NCBI GenBank assembly: GCA_963749705.1
Contig: CAVVNQ010000003.1
Span: 384,001-448,000, forward strand
Length of the DNA: 64,000 nt
DNA from: an uncultured Chloroflexia bacterium
GTDB lineage: Bacteria > Chloroflexota > Limnocylindria > Limnocylindrales > CSP1-4
Direction: 5' to 3'
Positions 52,383 through 59,492 of the stretch are shown piece after piece. Position numbers and translations under genes: made by a program. Position 1 is the first letter of the stretch, and every line of letters starts with the position of its first letter. The notes beneath the pieces are model-generated. The model had not been told where the DNA came from, ran no database searches, and saw only the letters and a program-made list of their open reading frames with translations.

Positions 52383-52459
52383 CGGGGCGTGGCGCAGCTT
52401 GGTAGCGCGCATCGTTCGGGACGATGAGGTCGGAGGTTCAAATCCTCTCGCCCCGACCA
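52383..52459 (+). tRNA. tRNA-Pro (CGG)
   Basis: Cloverleaf; catcg-ttCGGga-cgatg; GGTTCAAATCC; CCA. Confidence 0.97.
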
Positions 52460-52669
52460 AACTCACCGATCTGGTCGCCGAGCTCGAACGTCGCGGGCAG
52501 CGCCCCGTCGAGACCCAGCGCGACCGCGTCGGAACCTACGTCCCCTGGCTGCCCTCGCCCTCGTCTCGTCGAGACCGTGCTCTGAACGTTCCGGTTGCTG
52601 CGGCAGAGCGGCAGCGGAACTCGTGCAGGAGTGGTACTAGACAACGTGCGAGAGTGGTAGTCTTGGTGC

Positions 52670-53902
52670 GTGCACTACCTCCCCAGGCTCGTCGATGGGC
52701 AGATCGACGCACTGCTGGCCGAGCTTCCTGCGATCTTCCTCACCGGGCCCCGAGCAACAGGCAAGACGACGACGGCCGCCCGCCGCGCCTCCACGATGGT
52801 GCGACTCGATCGCGAGGCCGAGGCCGTCGCATTCCGGGCCGATCCCGACGCCGCCCTGCGCGGCCTTCGTGAGCCGATTCTGCTCGACGAGTGGCAGGTC
52901 GTGCCGGGCGTGCTCGGCGCCGTGAAGCGGGCTGTCGATGCGGACCCGCGTGCCGGACGATTTCTCATCACGGGCTCGGTCCGCGGCGATCTCGACGGCG
53001 AGCTCTGGCCCGGGACGGGCCGGCTCACCCGCGTTCCGATGTTCGGCATGACGGTCCGTGAGCAGGCAGGGCACGGCGGTGGCGGCGTCCCCTTCCTCGA
53101 CCGGGTGGTCGCCGGCGCCGAGCTGCTCCCGGCCGCGGATACCCCGGACCTGCGCGGCTACGTGGAGCTGGCACTGCGCGGTGGCTTCCCGGAGCCGGCC
53201 CTGCGGCTCGGCGAGACCGCCCGGCGCGCCTGGCTCGAGAGCTACCTCGAACACCTGCTGACCCGCGACGCCGAGCAGGTCGAGGGCGGCCGGGACCCGG
53301 TTCGCCTGCGCCGCTATCTCAGGGCGTACGCGCTCAACACGGCCGGCATCGTGGACGAGAGGACCCTCTTCGAGGCGGCTGGCATCAACCGCCGGACGGC
53401 CCAGGCCTACGAGCGGCTGCTCACCAACCTGCTGGTGGTCGAGGCGCTCCCCGCCTGGACCTCGAACCGGCTCAAGCGTCTCGTGCTCATGCCCAAGCGC
53501 CACCTGGTCGATCCCGCGCTGGCCGGGGCCGTCCTGGGTCTCGACGCCAACCTCGTGATTCGCGAGGGCGGCCTCCTGGGGCGTCTGCTCGACACGTTCG
53601 TCGTCGCCCAGCTGCGGGCCGAGCTCGCTGTCACCGCCGCAAAGCCGCGCCTGTACCACGTGCGCCAGCAGCAGGGCAGGCTCGAGGTCGATGTGCTCGC
53701 GGAGCTCGCCGGCGGTCGGCTCGTCGCGATCGAGGTCAAGGCCGACGCCGCGCCGTCACCCGACGCGGGTCGGCACCTGGGCGCCCTCCGGGACCGGTAC
53801 CCGGAGACGTTCATCGCCGGCGTCGTCCTCCACACGGGTCCGCAAACCTACCGTCTCGGCGACAGGATCGTCGCCGCGCCGATCTCAAGCCTTTGGGCCT
53901 GA
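52670..53902 (+). CDS. AAA ATPase with DUF4143 (C-terminal nuclease-like) domain
   Basis: GPRATGKTT, LLDEWQ, LITGS, GGFPE, PKRHLVDPAL, EVD...AIEVK. Confidence 0.9.
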   Translation: MHYLPRLVDGQIDALLAELPAIFLTGPRATGKTTTAARRASTMVRLDREAEAVAFRADPDAALRGLREPILLDEWQVVPGVLGAVKRAVDADPRAGRFLITGSVRGDLDGELWPGTGRLTRVPMFGMTVREQAGHGGGGVPFLDRVVAGAELLPAADTPDLRGYVELALRGGFPEPALRLGETARRAWLESYLEHLLTRDAEQVEGGRDPVRLRRYLRAYALNTAGIVDERTLFEAAGINRRTAQAYERLLTNLLVVEALPAWTSNRLKRLVLMPKRHLVDPALAGAVLGLDANLVIREGGLLGRLLDTFVVAQLRAELAVTAAKPRLYHVRQQQGRLEVDVLAELAGGRLVAIEVKADAAPSPDAGRHLGALRDRYPETFIAGVVLHTGPQTYRLGDRIVAAPISSLWA

Positions 53903-53916
53903 CGGAGAAGACGCTG

Positions 53917-54110
53917 ATGACCCGCACCTGGCTGTCGATCCGTGTCGACCTCGTTGAGGGTCGCGGGCAGCGCCTCTGGCCGCGCAGTGGAAGGATCTTC
54001 GCTGCCGCCAGGAGCCACACCCTTCGCGGCCCTGGCCGCCGCCATCGACGACGCCTTCGCCCGCTGGGATCGCGCGCACCTCCACGAGTTCCGCTTCTCC
54101 GATACCGGAC
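53917..54110 (+). pseudogene. Frameshifted, truncated pRiA4b ORF-3-like gene
   Basis: MTRTWLSIRVDL...GRIFAAARSH, then FAALAAAIDDAFARWDRAHLHEF in another frame. Confidence 0.6.
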
Positions 54111-54362
54111 GTTCCGCTCGCCTACTGGGGGTGGGGCACGATCCCCGACCAGTACGGCCGTCGGTGGGACGGCGATGATGGGGAGGGCCCGCGGCCGGGC
54201 GATCCCGGAGGCGAGGACCTGCCGCCGCTGCGCCCGGGGTGGGGGCAGGGGCGGAGCCTATGACCTCATCAGAGCTTAGACCGGGACCTCGGTAAGCTCT
54301 TCACGCGGTTCCATGACCCGGCATCGCAGCGGCCAAACGACCGAGACATTAAGGTAGGTTCT

Positions 54363-54391
54363 GGAGGTTCGTCTCCTCTCGCCCCGACCAA
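54363..54391 (+). repeat. att-like copy of tRNA-Pro 3' end
   Basis: ggaggttcgtctcctctcgccccgaccaa. Confidence 0.9.
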
Positions 54392-57227: not shown

Positions 57228-57568
57228 TTGCCCAGGGCGAGGTCTGGTGGGCGGACCTCGCCGAGCCGGCCGGCTCCGAGCCCGGGTTTCGCCGCCCCGT
57301 CGTGGTCGTGCAGGGCGACGCCTTCAATGCAAGCACGCTCCGGACGGTCGTCTGCGTCGCGCTCACGAGCAACCTCCGCTGGGCGGACGCCCCGGGCAAC
57401 GTGCTGCTGGCCGCCCGGGCCACGGGGCTCCCGAAGGCGTCGGTCGCGAACGTGACGCAACTCGTGACGCTCGACCGCGAGGCGCTCACCGAGCGCACTG
57501 GCCGTCTCTCCGCGTCGAGCCTCGAACTGGTGATCGCCGGCATCGACACGCTGCTCGGCAGGGGCTGA
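57221..57568 (+). CDS. mazF: PemK/MazF toxin
   Basis: GEVWWADL, GSEPGFRRPVVVVQ, SVANVTQL. Confidence 0.93.
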   Translation: MVIAQGEVWWADLAEPAGSEPGFRRPVVVVQGDAFNASTLRTVVCVALTSNLRWADAPGNVLLAARATGLPKASVANVTQLVTLDREALTERTGRLSASSLELVIAGIDTLLGRG

Positions 57569-57629
57569 CTGCGACGCGAGTCACGGACGACGTGCGCGCG
57601 AGGATGCGGACATGCAACGGGCCATCCGA

Positions 57630-57735
57630 CCGGGACGTGCGCGGGCCTTGCTTGCCCTGGGGAGCGCACGGCGTCGCGCTCGACAGAAGCGATCGGCCCG
57701 CGCCGCACTGGAAGCTGCGATCGCCGCCGTCGAAA
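57630..57735 (+). pseudogene. Fragment of large LuxR-type regulator
   Basis: RARALLALGSARRRARQKRSARAALEAA resembles the helical region of such regulators. Confidence 0.4.
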
Positions 57736-57796
57736 TCGTCGTCCTGAGTCGTCTCGCCCTGACAGATTGCGGATCTGAGCGTGCGCCGCCGGCTGT

Positions 57797-59341
57797 TCAC
57801 GGATGGCTCGCCGTGACCTCAAAGAGTTGCCACTCGCCCGGCACCCCGCGCAGTGCATGTTGTCCCGCGTCCTGCATCGGCACATCGGGAAGTACGGAGG
57901 CCAGGTCTGCGGAGACGAGGATGTCCCCCGCCCCGGCTGTTCCCATGACCCGCGCGGCCGCGTGGACAGCCAGCCCGCTCACCTGTTCGCCACGCATCTC
58001 CACGTCGCCCAGGTGCAGCCCCGTTCGGACGCGGAGACCGAGCCTCCCCACGCTTCCACGCATCGCCACCGCGCAACGGATCGCGTTGCCCGGACGATCG
58101 AACACGGCGAAGAAGGCGTCGCCGGCCGTGTTGACCTCGCGGCCACGATACCGCGCCAGCTCCTGGCGCACCGCGGCCCTGTAGGCGTCGAGGACCTCCC
58201 GCCAGCGCTCGTCGCCCAGGTTGACGATCGCCTGGGTGGATTCCACGATGTCGGTGAAAAGGAGCGTCAACCGGCTGCGCGCTGGCAGTGCTCGGTCGAC
58301 GATCGGCCGCAGTCGATGACGCACCGGGGAGAAGGCGAGCCCGGCGGCCAGGCCCACTGCGGCCGCCATCAGATTGGAGCCCTGACCGAACCATGCCTGC
58401 AGTGCGTTTTGCGCCACCACGTTGGCCGCGCCGAACACCACGAGGAGCACCAGGCTGACGGCCCCGTACAGGGCAGTCCGGTTCAGGAACAGGTCAAGGT
58501 CGTAGAGTCGATAGCGAAGCATTGCGACCGCGAAACCGAGTGGCATGGCGATCCCGAAGCCGGCAACCGTGGTGACCGTCACCAACACGTTGACCTGGTC
58601 GAGTGGGACGATCAGCAGCGCGCCCACGTTGAGGCCAACGTTCAGGAACACCGCGAAGGCCGTCGACCATGCGATCCAGCGCAGCTGCAACGCCTCCTCG
58701 CCCTGCGACCGCCTGAGCCGGAGCACGATGGCCACGCCGGCAGCCGCCACGATGCCCAGGCCGGCCAGGTAGAGGACGATGCCGAGCGGCGAGAGCGCCA
58801 GGCCCTCGAGCTCCGGCACGGCGGTCGGGTTGGGGGCGCCGGGCAGGGTACGGAGCTCGAGCCCGCGCGGGTCCAGCACCGTTGCGATCACCAGGAGCAC
58901 GGTCACGGCCACCGCCGACCGCGCCACCCACCGCCAGCGTCGCGACAGCAGCCGGCCATTTGGAACAAGCAGGAGGACTATCGGCGCCAGCCCAGCGGGG
59001 TACACCAGCGTGAGGGCAACGCTGCCGAACCACGGGATCCATGACGTGAAGGGAGCCTGCGGGTTGGTATCGAGGGCGTAGCGTGTGAACTGCGTGGCCG
59101 CGCCGTTCAACCCCATGGCCAGCGCCATCGCCAGGAAGATCCAGCCCGTGGCGTTCCGGGTCTGGCGCGACGCGACCAGGGCGCCGAGGATGCCGAAGCT
59201 GACGGGCAGGACGATCTCGGCCGCGCTAGTCTCATCGAGCGTCTGGATCGACGCGCGGTTGATGAACGCGAGCAGGGCGGTCCCGGCCGCGGCCAGCAGC
59301 GTAGCGACGCAGATCGACCACGCGAGGAGACGGGCGCTCAC
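57797..59341 (-). CDS. Membrane-bound class III adenylate/guanylate cyclase
   Basis: Many TMs; LFTDIVEST, NTAGDAF, RTGLHLG, AVHAAARV, LRGVPG. Confidence 0.9.
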   Translation of the reverse strand: MSARLLAWSICVATLLAAAGTALLAFINRASIQTLDETSAAEIVLPVSFGILGALVASRQTRNATGWIFLAMALAMGLNGAATQFTRYALDTNPQAPFTSWIPWFGSVALTLVYPAGLAPIVLLLVPNGRLLSRRWRWVARSAVAVTVLLVIATVLDPRGLELRTLPGAPNPTAVPELEGLALSPLGIVLYLAGLGIVAAAGVAIVLRLRRSQGEEALQLRWIAWSTAFAVFLNVGLNVGALLIVPLDQVNVLVTVTTVAGFGIAMPLGFAVAMLRYRLYDLDLFLNRTALYGAVSLVLLVVFGAANVVAQNALQAWFGQGSNLMAAAVGLAAGLAFSPVRHRLRPIVDRALPARSRLTLLFTDIVESTQAIVNLGDERWREVLDAYRAAVRQELARYRGREVNTAGDAFFAVFDRPGNAIRCAVAMRGSVGRLGLRVRTGLHLGDVEMRGEQVSGLAVHAAARVMGTAGAGDILVSADLASVLPDVPMQDAGQHALRGVPGEWQLFEVTASHP

Positions 59342-59462
59342 ACGGGGATGCTAACGGACGCGCTCGGCGGAGAGGAACCCGAACATGGCGTGTGCCAGGC
59401 AGAGGGCTCGACCCGACTGCGGCCTGATCCGCTGCCGACGATCCTGACGGTCAGCTGGAACG

Positions 59463-59492
59463 TCTCGCTCCGACCCCTCTCGCCCCGACCAA
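59463..59492 (+). repeat. Stacked att-like copies of tRNA-Pro 3' end
   Basis: tctcgctccgacc directly followed by cctctcgccccgaccaa. Confidence 0.85.

Follow-up and report, generated by a model that had tools for sequence, protein, structure and literature searches.

Probable tandem accretion of decayed serine recombinase elements at the 3' end of a tRNA-Pro(CGG) gene in an uncultured Limnocylindrales bacterium

We analyzed a 64,000-nt stretch of DNA from an uncultured Chloroflexia bacterium of the order Limnocylindrales (GenBank assembly GCA_963749705.1, contig CAVVNQ010000003.1, positions 384,001 to 448,000; hereafter the window), in which the 3' end of a tRNA-Pro(CGG) gene is repeated several times downstream of the gene itself, with a different small gene unit between each pair of repeats. 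We place a probability of about 0.8 on the view that this locus is a tandem accretion array at the tRNA 3' end, made up of decayed large serine recombinase (LSR) elements and prophage remnants that no longer have a recombinase in this genome. Its builders would include tailed temperate phages, and the enzymes would be LSRs and not tyrosine integrases, with LSR catalysis at the site predicted from sequence comparison. The source genome (G000) comprises 3.6 Mb in 22 contigs and is 88% complete; the window corresponds to C3:384001-448000 of its contig C3, and coordinates below are those of the window unless a contig is named.

Repeated tRNA-Pro ends and recombinase stubs

The tRNA-Pro(CGG) gene called by ARAGORN (52383-52459, + strand) is intact, and its final 16 nt (52444-52459), on the attB/attL side, constitute the repeated core, CCTCTCGCCCCGACCA. 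A motif scan of the window located, on the + strand in every case, exact copies at 52444, 54375, 55285, and 59476 and a one-mismatch copy at 56888, in agreement with an initial annotation that had noticed, from the letters alone, at least five att-like repeats in the same orientation. The repeat finder extended the family to 29 nt, with five copies that are 100, 90, 79, 76, and 72% identical to the tRNA copy and spacings of 1931, 910, 1603, and 2588 nt, matching the units of about 1.9, 0.9, 1.6, and 2.6 kb described there. The strong copies, described there as intergenic, do all sit between plausible genes. The array does not end at 59492, as had been supposed, since a further exact core with a T-arm-like extension lies at C3:448917 (window-equivalent 64917), 917 nt beyond the window end, and a degenerate one matching 13 of 16 positions lies at C3:450622-450637 (window-equivalent 66622).

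Weaker copies are present as well. A degenerate core at 57750-57765 (12/16) is preceded, at the right spacing, by an arm motif of the R4 type, which closes VapBC-type cassettes in relatives; the core is weak alone (nhmmer E 0.16 in a 60-kb region). Two abutting cores occupy 59461-59491 on the + strand, a degenerate one at 59461-59476 (13/16) and the exact one at 59476-59491, with one base in common, as if an intervening cassette had been lost or the site duplicated. These account for two of the weaker remnants in the initial annotation, those at 57752 and 59463, while the other two, at 54143 (E 16) and 59407 (E 3.5), do not rise above chance.

The repeated tRNA-Pro ends are real and locus-specific. 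Across the whole genome, eight sites match the core with at most one mismatch: six in the array and two unrelated one-mismatch matches on contigs C9 and C15. A genome-wide search, proposed alongside the initial annotation, thus confines the motif to this locus bar those two. A junction profile built from 51 junctions of 12 other genomes, with the source genome left out, recovered the six array sites genome-wide (nhmmer, E 9e-12 to 5e-3) and, besides them, three weak sites only. One might still attribute the repeats to no site-specific process at all, that is, to chance recurrence of the motif or to tRNA pseudogenes spread by ordinary duplication. The sequence is high in GC, and three-mismatch matches are somewhat abundant, with 7 seen against 3.1 expected and 4 of 100 shuffles reaching 7. 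However, the five exact 16-mers lie on one strand inside 12.5 kb with none elsewhere in the 3.6 Mb, the units between the repeats are unrelated to one another in sequence, and the same arm classes beside the cores recur in other species, so that we give this explanation next to no credence.

Two other tRNA-Pro calls were noted in the genome. The tRNA-Pro(TGG) gene at 35671-35745 has a 3' end related to the motif (three mismatches), with no downstream repeat seen. An odd 98-nt ARAGORN call of a 'tRNA-Pro(cgg)' at C20:5223-5320 is likely false, the core motif not being nearby.

The absence of an integrase, also remarked on at the outset, is confirmed to the extent that no tyrosine recombinase is encoded on C3 and no serine recombinase in the 88%-complete genome, where the serine recombinase family PF00239 has 0 matches. 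LSR bodies were sought with profile A2, a 4-sequence LSR alignment (a 9-sequence alignment was too diverse for a scan of the collection), which had 0 matches in this genome vs matches in five of five relatives. What persists are two LSR 3' stubs, both detected by tblastn with relatives' LSRs. The first (52460-52542, - strand; E 4e-15 and 1e-11) forms the left end of cassette 1, directly after the tRNA; together with the antisense of the tRNA it matches the final ~57 residues of relatives' LSRs, and it is 81% identical to a stub in a relative, G033. The second (55301-55416, - strand), at the left end of cassette 3, matches the tail of the G070 LSR with 64% identity over 45 aa (E 7e-12). No other significant LSR pieces were found in the array by the same search. 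At the opposite end of cassette 3, the right arm includes a ~25-nt block common to the attP arms of three phage contigs (L173, L174, and L175), and the same block is also found at the right ends of relatives' cassettes. LSRs that persist in relatives and related phages appear to be lost from this genome.

Large serine recombinases at the same site in relatives and phages

Among the 37 genomes of the same genus, G000 included, 25 contain at least two exact cores, seven contain one, and five contain none. We sampled stretches with clustered cores from 12 relatives, and within each of the 12 the exact cores share one strand. Eight stretches include the true tRNA-Pro gene followed by 2-6 further cores downstream, and the other four are without the tRNA; where annotated, the same glutamine synthetase III and helix-turn-helix (HTH) genes lie upstream of it. 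The sequences to the left of the cores fall into recurring classes, several of them pseudo-tRNA-like from the anticodon arm onward, and those to the right form separate classes, with left and right classes combining freely between genomes.

In four relatives (G030, G036, G012, and G027), many short contigs start or end at a core or about 105-126 nt from one, and G030 has 26 exact core copies spread over many contigs. The repeats and the neighboring LSR genes seem to break short-read assemblies, so that array sizes in metagenome-assembled genomes (MAGs) are underestimates.

The gene that adjoins the site in relatives encodes an LSR. Among 249 array open reading frames (ORFs) searched with Pfam were a serine recombinase of 545 aa in G025, intact and immediately next to the tRNA, and a truncated counterpart in G026. 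Searching 70 genus genomes with the G025 protein returned many LSRs adjoining cores, at 30-100% identity, and in nearly every one of the 70 the final ~35 residues of the query also matched the antisense of tRNA-Pro itself. Within the genus, 12 loci have an LSR ORF that is antisense to the tRNA and extends over the core. Two frame types were seen, one in which the ORF ends six bases past the core, in the T-loop antisense, and another in which it reads through the whole tRNA. Genes abutting cores form a decay series, from intact genes through a frameshifted LSR at the tRNA (G014) and a C-terminal half plus a stub (G006, a single-contig genome) to a stub (G033), and the remnants always retain the att-proximal 3' end. 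Heavily eroded tandem islands were among the possibilities raised initially, and that suggestion is upheld by this series together with the two recombinase stubs and the phage-like attP arm of cassette 3.

The resolvase domain PF00239 scored above the cut-off in eight of nine LSRs. In an alignment of the nine, Arg50, Ser52, and Thr53 (the R-x-S-T motif) are invariant, as is a cluster of Cys320, Cys323, His340, and Cys346. The recombinase domain PF07508 was above the cut-off in two of the nine and below it in four more, and PF13408 was below the cut-off in one. Their open frames span 505-719 aa, where LSRs usually run to about 450-700 aa with recombinase and zinc-ribbon domains after the catalytic one, and sequence matches in the PDB are to the N-terminal catalytic domains of resolvase-family proteins and phiC31 integrase (E 1e-7 to 6e-4).

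A scan of species-representative genomes returned 234 relatives of the LSR, and the 80 loci that were kept are nearly all from MAGs labeled Chloroflexota, Chloroflexia, or Candidatus Limnocylindrales. The 3' end of the LSR ORF overlaps a tRNA-Pro core at 33 of these loci, 14 with a called tRNA, and a tRNA-Arg(CCG) core at 23, 18 with a called tRNA. A disrupted LSR ORF lies less than 900 nt from a tRNA-Pro core at 10 loci, a tRNA-Arg(CCG) core lies within 900 nt at four, and neither core is present at 10, where at least five of the ORFs reach the end of the fetched locus. In a tree of 91 LSR bodies from which the tRNA-encoded tail had been trimmed, the 43 Pro-linked and 28 Arg-linked rows require a single label change. 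LSR clade thus co-varies with target tRNA, a pattern of clustering and not of independent events, since relatives share labels. One apparent minimal element of 2.7 kb, delimited by a second ARAGORN 'tRNA-Pro' in locus L125, was set aside as a false call with no core.

The source genome has a tRNA-Arg(CCG) gene of its own on C3 (C3:72605-72680), with a one-mismatch copy of its last 16 nt 2.9 kb downstream (C3:75614). The unit so delimited (C3:72605-75629) contains a Fic-type module and a small HTH gene and is homologous to tRNA-Pro cassettes of G014, G013, and G006. A 681-nt stretch past the second copy matches part of another relative's cassette, G026_c4, at 96.6% identity, and a further exact Arg motif occurs at C15:94882.

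Phages encode the same family. LSR relatives with 36-77% identity were found on 19 IMG/VR contigs, and 13 of these have a core at the LSR 3' end (10 Pro and three Arg). All three annotated viral contigs carry tailed-phage genes: a RecE-like exonuclease, RusA, holin, portal, scaffold, and major head genes on L173, a large terminase on L175, and large terminase, portal, and head morphogenesis genes on L183. The PHROG 'integrase' family phrog_95 matches three of the phage LSR copies (E 1e-31 to 3e-47). On L173, L175, and L183, phage genes flank the LSR-core junction on both sides and tRNA-Pro does not lie beside the core, which indicates that these contigs are in the attP form. In that form the LSR frame extends 67-96 nt past the core, and in a scripted excision of the G025 element the LSR tail has 29 codons vs 30 when integrated. 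A tRNA-Met gene (L173:10796-10870) lies about 430 nt beyond the attP core of L173.

The initial annotation had implied a tyrosine integrase as the agent, and classical tRNA islands whose integrase gene has been lost or lies elsewhere would be the conventional explanation, tyrosine integrases being the usual agents at tRNA genes (PMC4383910). This genome does encode tyrosine recombinases, with five PF00589 matches. None of the five is on C3, however, and two lie just downstream of a tRNA-Gln gene on contig C6; nor did PF00589 match in the five relatives' arrays that were searched. In relatives and phages it is an LSR gene that overlaps the repeat, and LSR clade tracks the target tRNA. We therefore regard a tyrosine integrase as a very improbable agent at this site. 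The C6 locus itself (C6:173026-175400), in which two convergent tyrosine recombinase genes lie within about 2 kb downstream of tRNA-Gln(CTG), probably represents an independent tRNA island of the classical kind.

Under the accretion model, an intact element would have its LSR gene at the tRNA-proximal end, transcribed toward the tRNA, with the last codons spanning the attachment site. Because the element would also carry the final 16 nt of the tRNA, integration would restore the tRNA gene and leave the displaced copy at the far end. Successive integrations would stack elements in a row, and deletions would then strip away recombinase and phage genes, sparing the att-proximal ends and selfish or useful cargo, here VapBC, MazEF, an ATPase of the PDC-S01 type, and a cyclase. 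With the recombinase bodies all gone and two 3' stubs left, the array has probably lost its mobility, barring an LSR brought in by an incoming relative. LSR catalysis at the site, the order of events, and any present mobility are the parts of this account that we infer.

Several points weigh against it. No recombinase stub was found by tblastn in cassettes 2, 4a, 4b, 5, and 6, and their status as decayed LSR elements is suggested by arm classes and by homologues in relatives. With the assembly no more than 88% complete, an LSR gene could have been missed. Where the array ends downstream was not established; relatives do not share their downstream flanks, and those of eight relatives map to scattered places in this genome. 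An empty attB was not found among 12 further genomes; in the six of these where the fetched core lies in the true tRNA, the DNA directly after it is element DNA in three, unclassified in two, and a contig end in one. Co-variation of the first bases after the cores showed no consistent pattern, and the crossover is therefore not placed. LSR action at the core is argued from adjacency, geometry, and the co-variation of clade and target. LSRs are, to our knowledge, generally reported to target sites in or beside protein genes and not tRNA genes. The 16-nt identical segment also exceeds the short common cores that LSRs are usually described as requiring, and the tRNA attB sites described for M. 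abscessus are those of tyrosine integrases, as far as the available part of that account goes (PMC10654092).

Discrete cassettes and possible mobility

Several units recur as discrete blocks in relatives. The VapBC unit (cassette 2) is homologous from end to end to a cassette of G005 (G005_c1, 84%), is the first unit after the tRNA in G010, and shares 91.7% identity with a copy in G014, compared with 79.8% for the flank. The MazEF unit (cassette 4a) corresponds to a stand-alone 783-bp cassette in G026 (G026_c3, 84%). Between relatives, an LSR-less 5.5-kb cassette of G014 (G014_c5) is 94.2% identical to part of a G025 cassette (G025_c3), the flank upstream of the tRNA being 79.2% identical; the block is bounded by cores at both ends in both genomes, with the left core degenerate in G025, and its neighbors differ on both sides. 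The third cassettes of G000 and G006 have only their ends in common (80 nt on the left and 118 nt on the right) and differ in cargo.

We also aligned to the window the assembled contigs of four soil runs from one study. A contig of run X4 (446 nt, depth 3.76) connects 55292 with 56896, omitting exactly the 1603 nt of cassette 3, with a shorter side of 114 nt and 8 nt shared. In run X1, possibly the source sample, contigs span cores 3, 4, and 5 with the same arrangement as the window, and one X1 contig diverges right after core 3, at 55306. Joints with a shorter side below 30 nt, such as one from 52459 to 55284 (depth 59.8) or one that 'goes back 35', were not used, as they probably come from other organisms sharing the tRNA. 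Window segments that no contig covers in runs X3 and X4 were likewise left out of account.

These patterns invite a second interpretation, in which the array is an active cassette system, either integron-like or akin to the recombinase-less cis-mobilizable elements (CIMEs) and pseudo staphylococcal cassette chromosome (psi-SCC) elements. The LSR-less units would be functional mobile cassettes retaining both att-like ends; an LSR acting in trans, from an infecting phage or a co-resident element, would excise them as circles and return these to tRNA-Pro or to any core. The array would then be a shuffling platform for toxin-antitoxin (TA) and defense genes, not merely a graveyard. This interpretation overlaps with accretion and decay and differs in claiming present, selected mobility. 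The blocks just described speak for it, with the G014/G025 and VapBC copies exceeding their flanks in identity, the former core-bounded among different neighbors, the VapBC cassette running from core to core in one relative and adjoining the tRNA in another, and the MazEF cassette standing alone in a third. So do the mixing of left and right end classes between genomes, the precise omission of cassette 3 in X4, the divergence after core 3 in X1, and the constant retention of the att-proximal 3' end by recombinase remnants. An integron analogue had in fact been put forward from the sequence alone, and discrete LSR-less cassettes, identity above that of the flanks, and one precise cassette absence give it some support, whereas none of the features that define integrons was seen, and an IntI-type recombinase is absent from C3.

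Several points count against it. Neither a circle junction nor an integration event was seen in the soil-run contigs. The absence variant is a single low-depth contig that is 95% alike on one side, and it may represent a related strain that never held cassette 3 or a deletion between direct repeats. High identity could also arise if larger array segments or prophages were transferred and then decayed, or by homologous recombination. The Fic module occurs in the tRNA-Pro arrays of three relatives and at tRNA-Arg in this genome; its presence at both tRNA types means that cargo moves between backbones, and recombination beyond core-to-core exchange clearly occurs. The retained 3' ends may also reflect ascertainment, since two cassettes become one whenever a deletion takes out the core between them. 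Finally, LSRs normally discriminate attP x attB from other pairings. We treat present mobility of the cassettes as conceivable, at odds of roughly one in three.

A broader proposal is more speculative still. Integron-like exchange may be at work throughout Limnocylindria, driven by LSRs of temperate phages and small elements at the tRNA-Pro(CGG) and tRNA-Arg(CCG) 3' ends; recombinase-less mini-cassettes with TA, abortive infection (Abi), Fic, and defense-candidate genes would keep both att ends and be excised, transferred, and re-inserted in trans. The recombinase ORF would read through attP, its C-terminal tail switching between the free and integrated states. We put this forward tentatively and consider it rather unlikely in its full form.

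Relation to known systems and gene content of the units

Accretion of this kind has precedents. Elements of the ICESt1 type and integrative mobilizable elements (IMEs) accrete in tandem at one att site together with integrase-less derivatives, the CIMEs, and share with the present locus a conserved gene 3' end as target, decay of a resident to an att-flanked integrase-less unit, adjacent re-integration, and frequent TA cargo (PMC5704250). In the available part of the same review, tRNA targets belong to tyrosine recombinases, and the site-specific IMEs with serine recombinases disrupt dispensable protein genes (PMC5704250). Here, in contrast, the recombinase is an LSR and the target a tRNA gene, and the units are very small and numerous. 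They are flanked by direct att repeats derived from the 3' end of the target gene, as CIMEs are, and they lack a recombinase; descent from a recombinase-bearing element is recorded by stubs in cassettes 1 and 3 and is presumed for the others.

SCC composite arrays include recombinase-less units. In SCCmec and the Enterococcus cassette chromosome, LSRs likewise insert elements with variable cargo at a conserved gene 3' end and leave direct repeats (PMC6222049). These differ in their rlmH target, ccrAB pair, and other att sequences (PMC6222049), whereas the elements considered here have one LSR gene, whose frame crosses its own att. SCC elements are recognized by ccrAB or ccrC and an attB in the rlmH 3' end; at this locus the target is tRNA-Pro, and the relatives have a single LSR gene. 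By description, the tycheposon islands of Prochlorococcus are also similar, with stacked elements next to a tRNA, partial tRNA copies between them, degenerate remnants, and cargo, and with new arrivals pushing older elements deeper (bioRxiv 10.1101/2020.12.28.424599). Their recombinases are of the tyrosine type in 910 of 937 and LSRs in the rest, and the phylum and hallmark genes differ from those considered here (bioRxiv 10.1101/2020.12.28.424599).

Like an integron, the locus presents a row of small, mostly single-function gene units, TA modules included, between recombination sites. Unlike one, its sites are tRNA 3' ends with class-specific arms, gene orientation is heterogeneous, and the units contain remains of their own recombinase genes. 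The lack of PF00589 matches on C3 and in the five relatives' arrays leaves neither IntI with an adjacent attI and promoter, which identifies integrons, nor a tyrosine integrase within an island beside a tRNA, as in Islander-type calls. SSV-type archaeal integrases, which are tyrosine recombinases, have attP inside the integrase gene, overlapping a tRNA gene, and are split in two by integration. The LSRs resemble them in that the attachment site overlaps both the recombinase ORF and the tRNA gene, so that integration changes the ORF, but here the exchange is limited to some 7-35 final codons, and the frame remains open whether the element is free or integrated.

The combination of an LSR, a tRNA target, and a recombinase frame running through its own att is absent from the available parts of the accounts of the closest systems (PMC5704250, PMC6222049, bioRxiv 10.1101/2020.12.28.424599). 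A literature search, which covered neither subscription journals nor supplements, found no published account of elements like these, nor of any Limnocylindria mobile element. This LSR family, with two clades matched to two tRNAs, would have a tRNA 3' end as its predicted natural attB, a kind of target that is usually attributed to tyrosine integrases, and short, highly conserved natural landing sites are of interest for integrase-based genome engineering. The model would explain how islands rich in TA and defense genes form in an uncultured class of soil and freshwater bacteria, and it offers a concrete case for asking whether phage integrases mobilize recombinase-less cassettes in trans. The repeats are also a warning, as they break short-read assemblies.

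In this genome the array has six or more units of 0.9-5.4 kb. Conjugation or mobilization genes were not seen in the array. The genes named initially, an AAA-DUF4143 ATPase, VapBC, MazEF, and a cyclase, are confirmed by Pfam; a supposed pseudo-protease is not, with no protease family matched even at E up to 5. A consensus promoter scan returned 0 sites vs 0.4 expected, which leaves the -10 boxes attributed to most units unconfirmed.

Cassette 1 (52460-54390, 1931 bp) encodes an AAA_14 and DUF4143 ATPase (52670-53902, + strand) along with a 128-aa ORF. The ATPase is a full-length match to the PADLOC defense candidate PDC-S01 (E 6e-102) and has 87% protein identity to a gene of G025 cassette 4; a 75%-identical copy adjoins a tRNA-Arg-type LSR in locus L157. 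Its right arm, a pseudo-tRNA of class R1, and the exact core at 54375-54390 together span 54334-54390 on the + strand (E 7.5e-10 genome-wide). Cassette 2 (54391-55300, 910 bp) carries the VapBC module on the - strand (54539-55155), with a PIN-domain VapC at 54539-54940 and a ribbon-helix-helix (RHH) VapB at 54928-55155, both assigned by Pfam, and 89-94% protein identity to cassettes of G005, G010, and G014. It is closed by an arm of class R4, not tRNA-like, and the exact core at 55285-55300 (55248-55300, + strand), recognized by motif, arm class, and profile.

Cassette 3 (55301-56903, 1603 bp) encodes a 410-aa protein (55524-56756, + strand) that belongs to no Pfam family and has no homologue in the 12 relatives' arrays or in LSR loci L062-L171. 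Its right arm, of class R6 and equivalent to the block of the phage attP arms, and the one-mismatch core at 56888-56903 cover 56852-56903 on the + strand. The degenerate R4-type arm and core at 57731-57765 (+ strand) divide the 2.6-kb unit of the initial annotation into two. The first part, cassette 4a (56904-57765, 862 bp), encodes an RHH antitoxin (56988-57227) and a PemK/MazF toxin (57221-57568) on the + strand (56988-57568; Pfam), and the second, cassette 4b (57766-59491, 1726 bp), a membrane protein with an adenylate/guanylate cyclase domain (57797-59341, - strand; Pfam).

Cassette 5 (5441 bp) extends from 59492 to window-equivalent 64932, the end of the exact core at C3:448917-448932. 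It includes an M78/IrrE-like peptidase gene (59609-60178, - strand), a gene for a DUF6220 protein (about 61161-61550, - strand), ORFs of unknown function, and, just beyond the window, a small HTH gene (C3:448367-448696, - strand). A sixth unit of ~1.7 kb, with an alpha/beta hydrolase gene, runs up to C3:450637.

The small HTH gene of cassette 5 belongs to a recurrent type. In relatives' arrays, a GerE/LuxR-like HTH gene of ~80-110 aa lies just to the left of many cores, on the recombinase strand, and this genome has, in addition to that copy, a stub at C3:450488-450580. Given its strand, the free form of an element would place the HTH gene directly downstream of LSR-attP, and the protein may be a regulator or directionality factor. 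Several large cassettes contain three or four copies of the gene, perhaps marks of lost cores.

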